64,000 nucleotides of DNA, taken from the IMG/VR virus record IMGVR_UViG_3300005825_000057, positions 37,534 to 101,533 of that record; one strand, written 5' to 3'. Below the pieces are notes generated by a model, which made no database searches, was not told the DNA's origin, and was given only the letters and a program-made list of their open reading frames with translations. The position numbers were made by a program, and so were the translations under genes. Each line of letters begins with the position of its first letter. The first letter of the stretch is position 1. Below are positions 21,415 through 26,597 of this stretch, piece after piece. Source of the DNA: a virus.

Positions 21415-21507
21415 TTTACAACGCCGAAAATTGTGGTACAATAACGGCAGACGAGAAAAAAATTCTGAATCTCTTGAAAAAACGAATTAGTGACACTACT
21501 ATAGTGT
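21415..21507 (+). promoter_or_regulatory. Tandem promoters of the tRNA operon with palindromic operator
   Basis: TTTACA-N16-TACAAT (21415-21442); TTGAAA-N17-TACTAT (21474-21502) overlapped by ACACTA-CTA-TAGTGT. Confidence 0.6.
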
Positions 21508-21530
21508 TACACAAGACAAAAGGTGCAATC

Positions 21531-21611
21531 GTGAACAAGTTCTCTTATCAGCTTAGCAGTTTATCATCCTCGTTGCTATTTAGCAACGACAGGGGAGGCT
21601 GTGTCCGCTGA
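21531..21611 (+). CDS. Putative attenuator leader peptide (MNKFSYQLSSLSSSLLFSNDRGGCVR)
   Basis: AAGGTG SD, GTG start, all six Ser codons, followed by an intrinsic terminator. Confidence 0.65.
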   Translation: MNKFSYQLSSLSSSLLFSNDRGGCVR

Positions 21612-21632
21612 GTAAGAGGACATAACGGGTTT

Positions 21633-21683
21633 AACCCCGGTAGCCCCCCAAGATGTTTGGGACTAGGCTACCGGGGTTTTTTT
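21633..21683 (+). terminator. Intrinsic terminator of the putative attenuator
   Basis: AACCCCGGTAGCC..GGCTACCGGGGTT followed by a T run. Confidence 0.85.
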
Positions 21684-21694
21684 GTGGGATAATT

Positions 21695-21994
21695 ATGAGT
21701 TGGGCCACACATTACATCGAAAAACTTCGCAAGGGTGAAACGGTTAGTTTCAGGCCAAGGGGAGGTTCGATGAAAGGCAAAATTGAATCCGGGCAATTAT
21801 GCACGGTGGAACCTGTAAAGGGTGAACTTGAAGTTGGTGATATAGTTTTATGTAAAGTTGGCGGAAGTCAATATTTACATTTGATTAAGGCAATCCAAGG
21901 TCAAAGGTATCAAATCGGAAATAACCGAGGCGGTATCAATGGGTGGATTGGGATGAATTCGATCTTTGGCAAATTGGTAGAAATCAATGAGTAA
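21695..21994 (+). CDS. S24/S26 peptidase-like small protein
   Basis: RGGSMKGKIESGQ..GDIVLCKV..YLHLI. Confidence 0.55.
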   Translation: MSWATHYIEKLRKGETVSFRPRGGSMKGKIESGQLCTVEPVKGELEVGDIVLCKVGGSQYLHLIKAIQGQRYQIGNNRGGINGWIGMNSIFGKLVEINE

Positions 21995-22382
21995 TACGGA
22001 CGAAAGTGCCAGTATGACTAGCGATTGGGCTGTGGGTGCATTCAAACCCAAGTCTATTCCAAGTCAATCAGAGGAATTTTTAACTCAATTGGCCAAAGAT
22101 ATAGCGATGAACTTGGTCTTTACATCAGACCATGTTAATCGTGAACAGTGGGACAACCTTCTCGGTATGATATTCATGCCGGTGGTTTTGGGAGCCTTTT
22201 CGGATTATACCGAGGAAGCCCGCAAAGACATTGGAATGATTTATGAATATTGGGATAAAGCTGGACCACGATCAATCAACGGGTATCCAATTTTCTTTTC
22301 TTTCGCAATTGTGAATGTAAAAGACAGATTGTTTGTCTGGGAGAAAGTAGAAAAAATTCGGAAGGTTCTGGAAGCCGTATAA
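21987..22382 (+). CDS. Hypothetical protein
   Basis: 131 aa, AGPRSINGYPIFFS. Confidence 0.65.
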   Translation: MSNTDESASMTSDWAVGAFKPKSIPSQSEEFLTQLAKDIAMNLVFTSDHVNREQWDNLLGMIFMPVVLGAFSDYTEEARKDIGMIYEYWDKAGPRSINGYPIFFSFAIVNVKDRLFVWEKVEKIRKVLEAV

Positions 22383-22383
22383 C

Positions 22384-22466
22384 GGGAGTGCTAATGCTGT
22401 GGGAAGCTACGCTGGCTGTAACCCAGCCGCCTTAATGGATAAGGGGTTCGATTCCTCACACTCCCA
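22384..22466 (+). tRNA. tRNA-Tyr(GUA), atypical
   Basis: Acceptor GGGAGTG/CACTCCC-A; anticodon arm GCTGG-CTGTAAC-CCAGC; TTCGATT loop; weak D arm. Confidence 0.65.
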
Positions 22467-22706
22467 CTTGAGAAAAGAAATGAAAGCATACTTGCTGGAT
22501 AAACGTGGAATAAGCAAAGTATATCTTGTCTTCGGAGAAGATTGTGTCTCTGCTGCCAAGGTACTAGCTGAAAAGCTAGGTTGTGATTACGAAGATTTTT
22601 CAGTAGGTGGTTCATGGGATGTTGACCCGAATGAGCCTATAAATTTAAGTCAACTATGGCCTTATTTTACAAATGCCCCCGGAAGGCATAGTACATAAGG
22701 AAAAAT

Positions 22707-22788
22707 GGCCTCGTGGTGGAATTGGCAGACACGCCAGACTCAAAATCTGGTGCCGCAAGGCGTGTGGGTTCGAGTCCCACCGAGGCCA
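22707..22788 (+). tRNA. tRNA-Leu(CAA)
   Basis: Canonical class II cloverleaf, CCAGA-CTCAAAA-TCTGG. Confidence 0.95.
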
Positions 22789-22789
22789 C

Positions 22790-22877
22790 TGGTAGATGGT
22801 GGAAGTTAGACACGGCCCCGTGTAGGGGTTGGTAGGCCGATCACCTACCGTGCAGGTATCGAATCCTGCTCTACCAA
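22790..22877 (+). ncRNA. tRNA-like RNA with non-standard anticodon and T loops
   Basis: TGGTAGA/TCTACCA stem, GCCCC-GTGTA-GGGGT, long variable arm, GCAGG-TATCGAAT-CCTGC. Confidence 0.55.
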
Positions 22878-22882
22878 CCACG

Positions 22883-22955
22883 GGACAGGGAGCTAGTGTG
22901 GTCATAGCACTGGACTGAAAATCCAGCAAAATCAGTTCGATTCTGATCCTGTCCA
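22883..22955 (+). tRNA. tRNA-Phe(GAA)
   Basis: GGACAGG/CCTGTCC-A; CTGGA-CTGAAAA-TCCAG; ATCAG-TTCGATT-CTGAT. Confidence 0.85.
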
Positions 22956-23171
22956 CTGTGAAAGGAAAATTTATGGCTAGATCATTGTGTAAAGACCCAA
23001 GTATATCTCAAAAAAACGATGCGAGTTGCATCGGAAATAAACGGGGTATGGCTCGCAGAGCTAAGAGAAATAGCAACAAAAGGGATCGACAAAAACTAGA
23101 CAAAGATTTGAAAGAAAGAATTGCACTTGTTCGGTAATCCGTTGCATATATACTTCTTAAAAGGAGTCTAT

Positions 23172-24843: not shown

Positions 24844-24925
24844 GGAAGATAAGCGAATGGTTAGCGGTCACACTGGAAATGTGATGCCCCGCAAGGGGTT
24901 GCGGGTTCGAGTCCCGTGTCTTCCG
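24844..24925 (+). tRNA. tRNA-Ser(GGA)
   Basis: TCACA-CTGGAAA-TGTGA, CCCC-GCAA-GGGG variable arm. Confidence 0.88.
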
Positions 24926-24939
24926 CTGGGAGAAAATAA

Positions 24940-25167
24940 ATGGTCACTGTAAAAATTGTTGGTCCCGGTTTGGTTGTGAATAAACCGGCTGCGATAATTT
25001 ACAAAGCATTGACTGAGGCTGGTTACAAAGTTGATCTTGAAGAATTTGCTGGACAACATCAGTATGTTCCAAAAGACGAATGGCCAGAGAAAGAATTAGT
25101 TGATACAGAACGCCAAAAGGGTATGGAAGTCAAAGTGGATGTTGATCCACTCCCTTGGGGCGGATAA
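24940..25167 (+). CDS. Hypothetical protein
   Basis: 75 aa, GGAG SD. Confidence 0.6.
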   Translation: MVTVKIVGPGLVVNKPAAIIYKALTEAGYKVDLEEFAGQHQYVPKDEWPEKELVDTERQKGMEVKVDVDPLPWGG

Positions 25168-25168
25168 T

Positions 25169-25257
25169 GGAGAGTAGGCAAATACTGGTTTGTTGCATCT
25201 GATTGGAAATCAGACCCGGTTTAAAACCCGGTGAGGGTTCGATTCCCTTGCTCTCCG
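25169..25257 (+). tRNA. tRNA-Ser(GGA), second scaffold
   Basis: TCTGA-TTGGAAA-TCAGA, long variable arm. Confidence 0.85.
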
Positions 25258-25260
25258 CTC

Positions 25261-25373
25261 GCACAGATGAAGGGCGTTCCCCTTAAATGAGAAATTGGCA
25301 TCGAGGGCCAGTGAGCCGTAAGGCGAAGGGCCGGGGCTATGTGGGTTCGAGTCCCATCGCCTTTCATCTGTGT
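25261..25373 (+). ncRNA. tRNA-like RNA with 16-bp terminal stem
   Basis: GCACAGATGAAGGGCG/CGCCTTTCATCTGTGT, intact T arm GTGGG-TTCGAGT-CCCAT, no anticodon arm. Confidence 0.6.
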
Positions 25374-25588
25374 TTTTATAAGTAGGGAAGCTAATGCACG
25401 CCAAAGTTTTTTATACTTTAGGGCAAAGAGATACGATTGCCGGTCTTTTTGCTATGATAAGATCAAAAGGAATAAATTCGACTTTGGCAGAACTTGCGGC
25501 TGAATATACTAAAGCATTTGATGAACCAAATCCCCATGTGGAATGGTGGATAAAACAAAATGAAAAGAAAGAAGATGTAGTTGAAAAT

Positions 25589-25671
25589 GGATAGGTTGAG
25601 CAATTGGCTGGCTCGCCAGACTGTAAATCTGGTCCCTTCGGGGCATGTGGGTTCGAGTCCCACCCTATCCA
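25589..25671 (+). tRNA. tRNA-Tyr(GUA)
   Basis: CCAGA-CTGTAAA-TCTGG, variable arm, canonical T arm. Confidence 0.92.
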
Positions 25672-25680
25672 CTGGTTTTT

Positions 25681-25758
25681 GGCTGGGTACGCAAACTTCG
25701 GCAAAGCGGCCACTTCGAGAGAGTGGTGATTTTGTGGGTTCGACTCCCATCCCAGCTA
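25681..25758 (+). tRNA. tRNA-Leu(GAG), no variable stem, C33
   Basis: CCACT-TCGAGAG-AGTGG, TGATTTT linker. Confidence 0.72.
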
Positions 25759-26154
25759 CTATGCATAAGAATTATTACAACCACGATGAATCTGAGAAAC
25801 ATTATCGAAGACATATATCAAACCTTGCGTACCGATATAAATTTAAGGTAATTTACGAAGACGAAAGAATTTTGAAGAAAGAGAATGGCGAAACAACAGT
25901 AATTGTGGATATAACAGAAACACCCCGCAATACTTTATGTTGGAAGGCTTGGCTCAAACTTCAAAATGAATACGAAAATGGATTCTGAAAAGATCGTGAT
26001 TGATACACAAGAAAAACTTTTGGAACACTTTGGGAAACCAGAGAAAGATTTTTTTGGTATATCTGGTCTTTATATGGATTCATTAGAGAATGGACGAAGA
26101 ATGCAATCGAGGATGGTGGATAACTATTTAAGATTGATATTTAAATTACAAAAT

Positions 26155-26241
26155 GGAAGCTAGGCAGATGTTGGCTTGCTGCACTTGTCTCGAAAACAAG
26201 ACCGGGTAAAACCGGCGAGGGTTCAATTCCCTTGGCTTCCG
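26155..26241 (+). tRNA. tRNA-Ser(CGA)
   Basis: CTTGT-CTCGAAA-ACAAG, long variable arm, G73. Confidence 0.88.
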
Positions 26242-26433
26242 CTGGGCACTAAAAGTGTCGTTCAAAAAAGTAAACTATTTCATGTAGAAATAAACTTGCT
26301 CCGACACAAAAACAAGAAAGGGCAATTAGAGGGTAGAAATTAAAGTGTAAAAATCCCCAACCCAAAAATAAAAAAATCCATGCTATAATTTGTATTTTTC
26401 TCATACACTATTGTAGTATATAATGAAGAAAAT

Positions 26434-26510
26434 GGGGTCGCACGGCGAATTAGTTTGGTAAGGCACAAGTTGCTCCAAGCTATTAGAGGGTTCAACTCCC
26501 TCCGACTCCA
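26434..26510 (+). ncRNA. Mini tmRNA-TLD-like RNA with Ala identity
   Basis: GGGGTCG/CGACTCC-A with G3:U70, stemless D region, long TAGTTTGG/CCAAGCTA helix, T arm. Confidence 0.6.
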
Positions 26511-26515
26511 CTTAT

Positions 26516-26597
26516 GGCCTCGTGGTGAAATTGGCATACACGCAAGTCTTAGGAACTTGTGCCGCAAGGCGTGTGGGTTCGAGTCCCACCGAGGCCA
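26516..26597 (+). tRNA. tRNA-Leu(UAG)
   Basis: Canonical class II, CAAGT-CTTAGGA-ACTTG. Confidence 0.95.

Follow-up and report, generated by a model that had tools for sequence, protein, structure and literature searches.

The attenuators of enterobacteria include the trpL, hisL, leuL and pheL leaders and two multivalent ones, the leaders of ilvGMEDA (Ile/Leu/Val) and thr (Thr/Ile). A leader-peptide attenuator also controls the aminoacyl-tRNA synthetase genes pheST. T-box riboswitches likewise switch between a terminator and an antiterminator, binding uncharged tRNA directly and with no need of translation. Among phages, the tRNAs of T5 reportedly replace host tRNAs cut by defence nucleases. 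A second synthetase gene, hisS, is known to lie under a leader-peptide attenuator (PMC2965389), and in Anabaena sp. PCC 7120 an inducible tRNA array, the L-array (trn operon), is supernumerary and silent until translation is impaired, under the control of a ribbon-helix-helix repressor, TrcR, on direct repeats of the promoter (PMC8421152, PMC10272220). The text of PMC8421152 mentions no attenuator, leader peptide or terminator for the Anabaena array, and our search of the literature found no published case of trp-operon-style control on tRNA genes.

Here, we analysed a 64-kb stretch of DNA (hereafter the window), part of a 101.5-kb huge-phage fragment, and compared it across five diverged lineages of huge phages: the window with L006 and L021; L003 (from G001); L005; L043 with L044 (G002); and L046 (G003). 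We consider it likely that a ribosome-mediated leader-peptide transcription attenuator gates an operon made up of an S24-like gene, a 131-aa gene and an array of Leu, Ser, Tyr and Phe tRNA genes. This reading, with leader codons matched to the amino acids of the array, is supported in silico by sequence comparison and modelled RNA folds.

Results

The leader and its signals

The leader ORF and Shine-Dalgarno sequence of the window (Table 1) are identical, letter for letter, to those quoted in an earlier note on this DNA, and the ORF encodes the peptide VNKFSYQLSSLSSSLLFSNDRGGCVR. Phe, Leu, Ser and Tyr account for 14 of the 15 codons of its core, 13 of them distinct, which bears out the claim of a core with all six Ser codons and few repeats. 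Only two stop-free 15-codon stretches reach 14/15 in the six frames of the 64-kb window, and the observed count was not reached once in 200,000 shuffles that kept the core's base composition. Read in the other two frames, the same bases gave 7 and 5 such codons. The leader also includes a Gln codon, and CUG is absent from it although the array has a tRNA-Leu-CAG.

Table 1. Features of the leader region and downstream genes, in positions of the window
Feature	Position	Strand	Description
Promoter-like P1	21415..21442	+	TTTACA-16-TACAAT, upstream TG
Promoter-like P2	21474..21502	+	TTGAAA-17-TACTAT
Shine-Dalgarno sequence	21520..21525	+	AAGGTG, five bases 5' of GTG start
Leader ORF	21531..21611	+	26 codons + TGA; GTG start; core 21540-21584
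Region 1 (predicted)	21539..21569	+	5' arm of long leader hairpin; codons 3-13
Apical hairpin (predicted)	21570..21589	+	8 bp, 21570-21577 with 21582-21589; loop AUUU
Region 2 (predicted)	21592..21621	+	G-rich 3' arm GGGGAGGCUG, stop codon and next 10 nt
Short G-run	21626..21629	+	CGGG; can pair with CCCG of terminator 5' arm in antiterminated fold
Intrinsic terminator (predicted)	21633..21685	+	GC-rich 13-bp stem, 21633-21645 with 21666-21678; small hairpin in loop; U7
S24-like ORF	21695..21994	+	99 aa, LexA/signal-peptidase fold; PF00717, E 7.5e-5, just under family cut-off
131-aa ORF	21987..22382	+	function not assigned; ends 2 nt 5' of first tRNA
tRNA array	22384..26598	+	ARAGORN and Rfam

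The two promoters, the internal leader hairpin and the 13-bp terminator with its T run, all claimed previously, were each recovered, the promoters as promoter-like sites and the hairpins as predicted folds. Two close relatives, L006 and L021, share P1, and the deletion variant L001 retains it. Of the two sites, P2 is the one that recurs in every lineage: TTGAxx ... TAC(C/T)AT lies 5' of the leader in L003, L005, L043 and L046. In the other lineages, too, the start codon has an SD-like site (AAGGG, GGAG) in front of it.

We searched positions 21000-27200 with cmscan against Rfam (E <= 1) and found no leader family (Leu_leader, Phe_leader, His_leader, Thr_leader, Trp_leader) and no T-box. The same search returned tRNA-clan matches with mascRNA-type matches under the tRNAs, two weak plastid UTR matches on the strand opposite two tRNA genes (E 0.03-0.9), and a weak RybB-like match on the terminator (E 0.069).

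Downstream genes and the tRNA array

In the window, the S24-like ORF begins 10 nt past the terminator U-run, and together with the 131-aa ORF it separates the terminator from the first tRNA. Four lineages have two protein genes at the head of the operon; in the fifth (L043/L044) the first gene after the terminator is a tRNA, and in L043 this tRNA-Tyr gene begins ~10 nt past the U-run. Since such spacing leaves no room for a promoter, the downstream genes would depend on read-through of the terminator.

ARAGORN detected 15 Leu/Ser/Tyr/Phe tRNAs in the array of the window and called an odd 91-nt tRNA-like gene Thr-UGU; Rfam added a good Leu-CAA (23823-23901) and a weak Leu-CAG-like match (~24255-24335). 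The anticodons are, for Leu, CAA (two), UAA (two), CAG (one, plus the weak one), GAG and UAG; for Ser, GCU, UGA, GGA (two) and CGA; for Tyr, GUA (two); and for Phe, GAA (two). Where the earlier note had claimed 16 tRNAs and listed 17 anticodons, we therefore count 16 firm and 17 possible, and its restriction to four amino acids stands. Inside the array there are also odd tRNA-like RNAs, a homing-endonuclease-like gene and several small ORFs; that gene and these ORFs go unmentioned in the earlier note, as do the two protein genes ahead of the first tRNA.

Recurrence in diverged lineages

Leader homologues of 24-27 codons, each with its SD and start codon kept, occur in L006, L003, L005, L043/L044 and L046. 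Phe/Leu/Ser/Tyr codons make up 14/15 of the core in the window, 18/18 in L003, 16/17 in L005, 16/16 in L043 (codons 4-19) and 14/16 in L046 (a 16-codon stretch, the remaining two being Val). Thus, the same four amino acids recur in all five lineages, in differing order and codons. The bias is specific to the leader frame (composition-preserving shuffles, P <= 2e-5 per lineage), the other frames having 3-7 such codons.

The arrays behind all five leaders contain only Leu, Ser, Phe and, in some cases, Tyr tRNAs. In the comparison across related phages that the earlier note had suggested, leader codons therefore match the amino acids of the array, though imperfectly: the exceptions within the leaders are a single Gln, a single Thr and two Val codons, and L046, which contributes both Val codons, has no tRNA-Val in its array. 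The further claim that the leader polls nearly every isoacceptor held in part. Codon diversity was above expectation in the window (P 0.002-0.009) and in L043 (P 0.0075-0.023), and in L005 it was so against the phage's own codon usage only (P 0.0175, vs. 0.29 under uniform usage); in the leaders of L003 and L046 it was not above expectation.

The complete relative G001 (533 kb) carries 59 tRNAs covering most amino acids. Its Leu/Ser/Phe(/Tyr) array is one sub-block of these, and all remaining tRNAs lie in a separate 36-kb array, in which two simple scans, which may miss cases, found no matched leader. Homologues of the S24-like gene that lack such an array (twelve from IMG/VR and two from GenBank) all lack the leader as well; its presence therefore follows that of the tRNAs rather than that of the S24-like gene.

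Some arrays have lost the element. In L001, L002, L022-24 and L004 the leader and terminator are deleted and the array remains, from which it follows that the array can manage without them. In the close relative L021, GAG replaces the GTG start and there is no other canonical start codon. The earlier note had held that homologous arrays without the ORF would speak against its reading; such arrays do exist, and sequence comparison clearly marks the ORF-less ones as secondary deletions.

Alternative pairings

The predicted fold has the same layout in all five lineages: the ORF and a G-rich arm containing the stop codon form a long hairpin, with a strong terminator after it. Although the sequences of the basal helices are unrelated, their pairing is maintained. 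Equivalents of region 1 in L003, L005, L043 and L046 differ in sequence and pair alike, the apical hairpin keeps its position with changed sequence in the other lineages, and the short G-run is represented by UGGGG or GGGGU in L003, L005, L043 and L046. The terminator stem shows compensatory U:A to C:G changes in relatives. The T-rich 5' arm is also constrained by its pairing with the purine-rich arm, which thus contributes to the codon bias but cannot account for its frame specificity.

Region 2 is predicted to have two alternative partners, region 1 or the 5' arm and loop of the terminator. When region 1 was removed in silico, every one of the five lineages was predicted to fold with the terminator 5' arm sequestered by the G-rich arm and the G-run upstream of the terminator (-27 to -35 kcal/mol). 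In the window this released the leader/terminator pairing that had been claimed, GGGG.GGCU (21592-21600) with AGCC.CCCC (21642-21649). Folding the leader, a check proposed in the earlier note, therefore predicts mutually exclusive terminator and antiterminator states in five of five lineages, a number too small for a formal covariation test. The duplex of region 2 with region 3 was better than with shuffled region 2 in three lineages (P 0.0085, 0.016 and 0.018); in the window it did not outperform shuffles of matched composition (P 0.40).

All five lineages place the stop codon within region 2, so that a ribosome terminating there would cover this region. Using a ribosome-footprint model, we found that, in all five lineages, a ribosome stalled within the first two thirds of the core strengthened sequestration of the terminator arm by 4-8 kcal/mol relative to a leader that is empty or has its ribosome at the stop codon, the effect in the window being only ~4 kcal/mol.

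Discussion

Proposed mechanism

Transcription would begin at P2, and in the window lineage also at P1, and a ribosome would load onto the 26-codon leader. With rapid decoding of Phe, Leu, Ser and Tyr codons, the ribosome would reach the stop codon and cover region 2; if it has already gone, regions 1 and 2 would pair. Either way, the 13-bp terminator could form, and the transcript would end at 21685. If any one of the matching charged tRNAs is short, the ribosome would stall in the first two thirds of the core and hold region 1. The loop and 5' arm of the terminator would then be taken up by region 2 and the short G-run, letting RNA polymerase continue into the tRNA genes.

The likeness to enterobacterial attenuators is close: a short leader rich in regulatory codons, an intrinsic terminator, exclusive 1:2, 2:3 and 3:4 pairings (here predicted), a stop codon set so that the terminating ribosome blocks the antiterminator, and one leader serving more than one amino acid. 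The phage element differs in being viral and in controlling tRNA genes rather than biosynthetic enzymes, so that its output would act directly on the sensed quantity. Its leader draws on most of the synonymous codons of four amino acids, whereas enterobacterial leaders carry a run of one codon, and there is no sequence or Rfam relationship between them. As at pheST and hisS, attenuation would control a translation component serving the sensed amino acid, although there it is one amino acid's charging enzyme and here the tRNAs themselves for four. Like a T-box, the element is proposed to sense a specific tRNA state and switch terminator and antiterminator; unlike one, it holds a conserved ORF and has no T-box match. 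The Anabaena L-array is cellular and covers most amino acids, whereas the phage array is viral and covers four.

Alternative explanations

A stronger version of the proposal would make the leader a gauge of the tRNA pool for inducible counter-defence. Ribosomes would stall on its matching codons after nuclease cutting of Leu, Ser, Tyr or Phe tRNAs or post-shut-off decay of host tRNAs, and the phage would call up replacements for exactly those codons, isoacceptor by isoacceptor, with the three class II families and Phe grouped by a common threat. As in T5, phage-borne tRNAs would supplement or replace the host pool. The T5-type case is a suggested role of phage tRNAs and is not known to involve inducible control. 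In G001 the array is one sub-block of the 59 tRNAs; the idea that it is a dedicated backup against host tRNA-cleaving defences is neither supported nor refuted, and we regard the gauge as possible but unlikely.

Less probable still is a general sensor of translation stress, as in erm/cat leaders, in which any slowing of ribosomes (by host shut-off, ribosome-targeting toxins or antibiotics, or low ternary complex) would open the terminator and the leader composition would be a by-product. Its anatomy would be identical to that of a tRNA-specific attenuator, the imperfect match of leader codons to the array is consistent with it, and general stress on translation induces the cyanobacterial trn array (PMC8421152). 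However, such a sensor has no need of a restricted set of amino acids, and the four in the leader are exactly those of the downstream tRNAs and have stayed constant through five lineages while order and codons drifted.

We give little credence to a free-standing small gene, either a structured small RNA ending at the terminator or a small Ser/Leu-rich peptide with some separate function (e.g., alongside the S24-like protein), leaving the downstream genes unregulated. The region does have both a promoter and a strong terminator, its 170-nt RNA is strongly structured (z = -5.8), and relatives that lost the element but kept the array, together with L021 and its missing start codon, would fit. Against this, the next gene or tRNA follows the U-run at ~10 nt without space for a promoter, the alternative pairing to the terminator arm is retained in five lineages, the codon bias is frame-specific while residue order is not conserved, S24-like homologues elsewhere lack such an ORF, and no Rfam family matches. 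A classical starvation sensor, reading Leu, Ser, Phe and Tyr supply through tRNA charging on behalf of the two protein genes with the tRNAs merely co-transcribed, is equally hard to credit: stalling would be the same for absent and uncharged tRNA and the protein genes do head most of these operons, but a tRNA comes first in L043/L044, the leader co-occurs with the array rather than the S24-like gene, and neither protein matches a family of amino-acid metabolism.

Implications

Under the leader-peptide attenuator that we favour, the tRNAs of the array would speed decoding of the leader and so close a negative feedback loop, in which tRNA supply is held to demand. The phage therefore probably reserves production of these tRNAs for times when ribosomes move slowly over Phe, Leu, Ser and Tyr codons.

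Results

Codon bias and conservation of the leader ORF

The leader sequence quoted in the earlier note on this DNA matched the window exactly, and its two promoters were recovered as sigma-70-like sites ahead of the ORF (P1 and P2 in the table). Phe, Leu, Ser, or Tyr is specified by 14 of the 15 codons of the leader core, which holds 13 distinct codons for these amino acids, including all six Ser codons. In the entire window, stop-free stretches of 15 codons with at least 14 of this kind occur only twice, and the count observed in the core was matched by none of 200,000 shuffles.

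Relatives of the window were gathered by anchoring first on the 131-aa protein and later on aligned S24-like proteins. Leader ORFs ahead of the tRNA arrays of related phages, which the earlier note had suggested should be sought, are present as homologs in five lineages: the window with loci L006 and L021 (DNA 80-85% identical); L003, within the complete 532,729-bp genome G001 (leader VNFFSLSLSLFSSSSLFSYSAEGGCTV); L005 (VNFLSLLSLSLFTLLSSYSTGGGCIV); L043 and L044, in the 223-kb record G002 (VNTLSLSLSLSYSSLYLFSDGEGCVLT); and L046, in the 343-kb record G003 (MNVLSSVLFSLSYSSLSSGPEEGV). Across lineages the core DNA is hardly alignable and the order of residues shifts; what stays constant is the four-amino-acid composition, the SD, the start codon, the size of the ORF (24-27 codons), and where its stop codon lies. 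With the leader or the surrounding 13 kb as query, no similar DNA was found among GenBank phages, and when IMG/VR was scanned for exact matches to a pattern combining the G-rich and terminator arms, only three known relatives and six chance matches in GC-rich contigs came back. Scanning metagenomes with the 131-aa protein gained L021 and copies of a deletion variant; remoter homologs of this protein (~40% identity) had no nearby tRNAs.

Pairing with a purine-rich arm imposes a T-rich composition. The core bias is frame-specific in all five lineages (shuffle P <= 2e-5), the alternative frames having only 3-7 Phe/Leu/Ser/Tyr codons (7 and 5 in the window); pairing alone is therefore insufficient to explain the bias. 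A RiPP precursor or peptidase-substrate peptide was also considered and rejected: the GGC tail is conserved as nucleotides of the G-rich arm, residue order varies, and S24-like homologs occur elsewhere without a leader ORF.

The earlier note had further proposed that the leader samples nearly every isoacceptor. The number of distinct Phe/Leu/Ser/Tyr codons equals or exceeds the simulated mean in all five lineages, and the excess is significant in the window (P = 0.002 with the phage's own codon usage, 0.009 with uniform usage), in L043 (P = 0.0075 and 0.023; all six Ser codons present), and, with own usage only, in L005 (P = 0.0175; 0.29 with uniform usage), but not in L003 or L046. In the window, the leader has a Watson-Crick codon for 10 of the 11 anticodon types of the array, CUG being absent. 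These results support codon sampling as a tendency, not a rule.

Features of the window and of related loci (window coordinates unless a locus is named)
Feature	Position	Remarks
Promoter-like site P1	21415-21442	
Promoter-like site P2	21474-21502	
SD AAGGTG		5 bases ahead of GTG start at 21531
Leader core	21540-21584	FSYQLSSLSSSLLFS
Leader stop codon TGA	21609-21611	closes 26 codons
Terminator	21633-21685	GC-rich hairpin + U7
S24-like ORF	21695-21994	borderline S24 match
131-aa ORF	21987-22382	no family match
tRNA array	22384-26598	
91-nt tRNA-like gene	22790-22880; L003 11982-12072 (= L010 1736-1826)	directly behind tRNA-Leu
PD-(D/E)XK endonuclease gene	23172-23579	PF11645, E 8e-14; inside array, homing-endonuclease-like
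Leu-CAA gene	23823-23901	short; good Rfam match
Leu-CAG-like gene	~24255-24335	short; weak Rfam match
D-arm/T-arm element	24336-24452	between two tRNA genes
Other short Leu-anticodon genes	24459-24535, 25681-25759	
80-nt RNA	26434-26513	Rfam tmRNA model, 29.5 bits (cut-off 47)
Ferredoxin-thioredoxin reductase catalytic chain-like gene	26599-26997	PF02943, E 6e-22; adjoins last tRNA
Solitary tRNA-Leu (UAA)	53198-53284	27 kb downstream of array; 62 bits, top tRNA score in contig
104-aa head-protein-like ORF	19355-19669	phrog_138, E 3e-20
Deletion variant	L001 5860-5995	
Larger deletion	L004 3780-3845	
IS607-like pair	L006 4002-5950	serine recombinase TnpA + TnpB
Partial S24-like homolog in LR745208	L064 2689-3185, 4001-4132	

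Predicted alternative RNA structures

The 13-bp terminator described previously was confirmed in the window, and a common fold was found upstream of it in all five lineages. Codons 3-13 form the 5' arm (region 1) of a long hairpin, the 3' arm of which (region 2) comprises a G-rich stretch (GGGGAGGCUG in the window), the stop codon, and ~10 bases beyond it; the hairpin is capped by a small apical hairpin, and the terminator (5' and 3' arms, regions 3 and 4) lies downstream. The basal helix is GUUCUCUUAUCAGC in the window, UCCUUGUCA in L003, GUCGUUGCUUAG in L005, and UCCUCAGUC in L046, each with its own partner near the stop codon. RNAalifold run on a MAFFT alignment recovered only the inner hairpin and the terminator, since the basal helix is too diverged for sequence alignment.

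Folding had been proposed as a check for alternative terminator and antiterminator states, and when the alternative fold was computed without region 1 and without the terminator 3' arm, such states were predicted in all five lineages, with energies of -27 to -35 kcal/mol. In this fold the G-rich arm pairs with the distal terminator 5' arm and the C-tract of the terminator loop (up to 12 bp in L043), and a short upstream G-run pairs with the CCCCG that begins the terminator arm. Duplex energies were -19 to -29 kcal/mol for regions 1:2, -18 to -28 for 2:3, and -27 to -35 for 3:4, similar in magnitude to those of classical attenuators. Compared with shuffled region 2, the 2:3 duplex was significant in three lineages (P = 0.0085, 0.016, and 0.018) and not significant in the window (P = 0.40) or L005 (P = 0.21).

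Stalling was modeled with a simple ribosome footprint that kept bases -15 to +12 about the A-site codon unpaired, on a transcript ending before the terminator 3' arm, and was compared with states in which the ribosome was absent or sat at the stop codon. In this model, stalling within the initial two thirds of the core made sequestration of the terminator arm 4-8 kcal/mol stronger in all five lineages, the smallest effect (about 4 kcal/mol) being that of the window. Scoring the model by paired terminator-arm bases gave no discrimination because the arm always pairs somewhere in the truncated transcript; the energy difference was used as the measure instead.

Genes downstream of the terminator

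Two protein genes that the earlier note had omitted, the S24-like gene and the 131-aa gene, separate the terminator from the first tRNA. The note had likewise passed over the endonuclease gene and the small ORFs within the array. In the window, the S24-like gene begins 10 nt past the U-run and no promoter-like site was found at 21502-22142; therefore, the downstream genes need read-through. In L043/L044 it is a tRNA-Tyr itself that lies ~10 nt past the terminator. Twelve further S24-like homologs in other huge phages, and two in GenBank records, have neither a Leu/Ser/Phe/Tyr array nor a leader, indicating that the leader accompanies the array. At the protein level, LR756511 and LR745208, both published huge phages, gave matches to the UvsW-like helicase and to the S24-like gene, with no leader upstream. 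The partial S24-like homolog of LR745208 (485 kb; locus L064) stands right behind a run of Arg and Gly tRNAs, and no leader was seen ahead of it. In GenBank, the 131-aa protein was matched only in Rhodobacter phage RcZahn, and distantly. Estuary metatranscriptome contigs, which carry no information on transcript ends or strands, matched the region identically in dispersed, thinly covered pieces; of those listed, none lies on 21510-21690.

Several relatives have lost or altered the element. In L021, GAG replaces the GTG start and there is no alternative canonical start codon. L001/L002 and three metagenome copies carry a deletion from about P2 (-35/-10) to about the end of the S24-like gene, which removes leader, terminator, and most of the S24-like gene and leaves the array directly behind P1. 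The larger deletion of L004 joins a 290-aa gene lying upstream to a shortened form of the 131-aa gene, and in L006 an IS607-like pair lies within the S24-like gene, just downstream of the leader terminator. The earlier note had held that homologous arrays without the ORF would count against its reading; the deletion variants of L001/L002 and L004 are such arrays, having clearly lost the ORF secondarily. Judged by these variants, some genomes can do without the attenuator, which does not imply inactivity where it is present.

tRNA arrays behind the leaders

Behind all five leaders the arrays are restricted to Leu, Ser, Phe and, in four of the five, Tyr tRNAs. In the window array, where 16 tRNAs had previously been read, ARAGORN predicted 15 Leu/Ser/Tyr/Phe tRNAs, and Rfam added one good match (Leu-CAA) and one weak match (Leu-CAG-like). 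The array also holds several odd tRNA-like RNAs and small ORFs. Among the 59 tRNA matches of G001, the Leu/Ser/Tyr/Phe genes have their own array behind the leader (minus strand, 473-499 kb), and those for other amino acids lie mostly on the plus strand in an array at 0-36 kb; a few untyped matches are scattered at 52-121 kb. No matched or analogous leader was found for this other array or in the rest of the window by searches based on conserved motifs, on short ORFs followed by a terminator, or on agreement between ORF composition and downstream tRNAs.

Bacterial tRNA families of three of these four amino acids belong to class II, with a long variable arm. Four Leu-anticodon genes of the array are only 77-81 nt and have no such arm; they neighbor normal Leu genes of 83-95 nt and Phe genes. 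Since several Leu-anticodon genes are thus short like Phe genes, common gene descent may underlie the grouping of Leu, Ser, Tyr, and Phe in one unit.

Other RNAs of the array are unusual. One tRNA-like gene, 91 nt in length, encodes its CCA end and has an odd anticodon loop; ARAGORN typed it as Thr-UGU in the window and as 'Pyl-CUA' in the 533-kb relative. Because its position is kept in two lineages, it may be an unusual tRNA, for instance a suppressor-like one. An RNA of 80 nt, whose acceptor and T arm are tRNA-like, matched both ends of the tmRNA model and looks like the tRNA-like domain of tmRNA minus the mRNA part. Elsewhere in the array, a perfect 10-bp stem encloses two tandem D-arm plus T-arm units.

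Genomic source of the window

The window comprises bases 37534-101533 of a 101.5-kb IMG/VR record estimated by CheckV to be 21% complete. Its genes include a UvsW-like helicase, a ferredoxin-thioredoxin-reductase-like gene, and a T4-type major capsid-like fragment, the latter a 104-aa ORF that matches an interior stretch of the T4-type major head protein and has no structural gene cluster around it. The nearest relatives of the window are uncultured phages of 220-545 kb, and in GenBank the closest record is LR756511, an uncultured phage of 595 kb; judged by these relationships, the window is a piece of a huge phage.

Discussion

The comparative and structural evidence makes it likely that the leader element is a leader-peptide attenuator. 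Such an attenuator, of the trp type, would open upon slow decoding of Phe, Leu, Ser, or Tyr codons, which could follow when host tRNAs are lost after shut-off, through cleavage, or through lack of charging. With the matching tRNAs as its output, it is most simply read as giving homeostatic control over the phage's supply of these tRNAs; nothing in these results supports the further possibility that the array serves as a backup against tRNA-cutting defenses. In mechanism the element resembles the multivalent leader-peptide attenuators of ilvGMEDA and thr, and it matched no Rfam leader family or T-box.

The targets for which textbook leader-peptide attenuation is known are enzymes of amino acid synthesis or charging. 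Full-text literature searches turned up no tRNA genes, phage or cellular, described as lying behind such an attenuator. The nearest printed case is the trn array of Anabaena, which is induced by translational stress (PMC8421152, PMC10272220), although control there is exerted by the repressor TrcR.

Here, attenuation appears to control tRNA genes, the sensor being decoding speed and the output the tRNAs for the same codons, so that sensed codons and tRNA output form a direct feedback loop. The element is small (~170 nt), self-contained, and accessible to reporter fusions, and it would, if this reading is true, be a compact natural sensor for decoding capacity at chosen codons. Huge phages would then meter their tRNAs rather than merely carry them, which bears on why large phages have tRNA sets, be it codon-usage matching, host shut-off, or escape from tRNA-cutting defenses.
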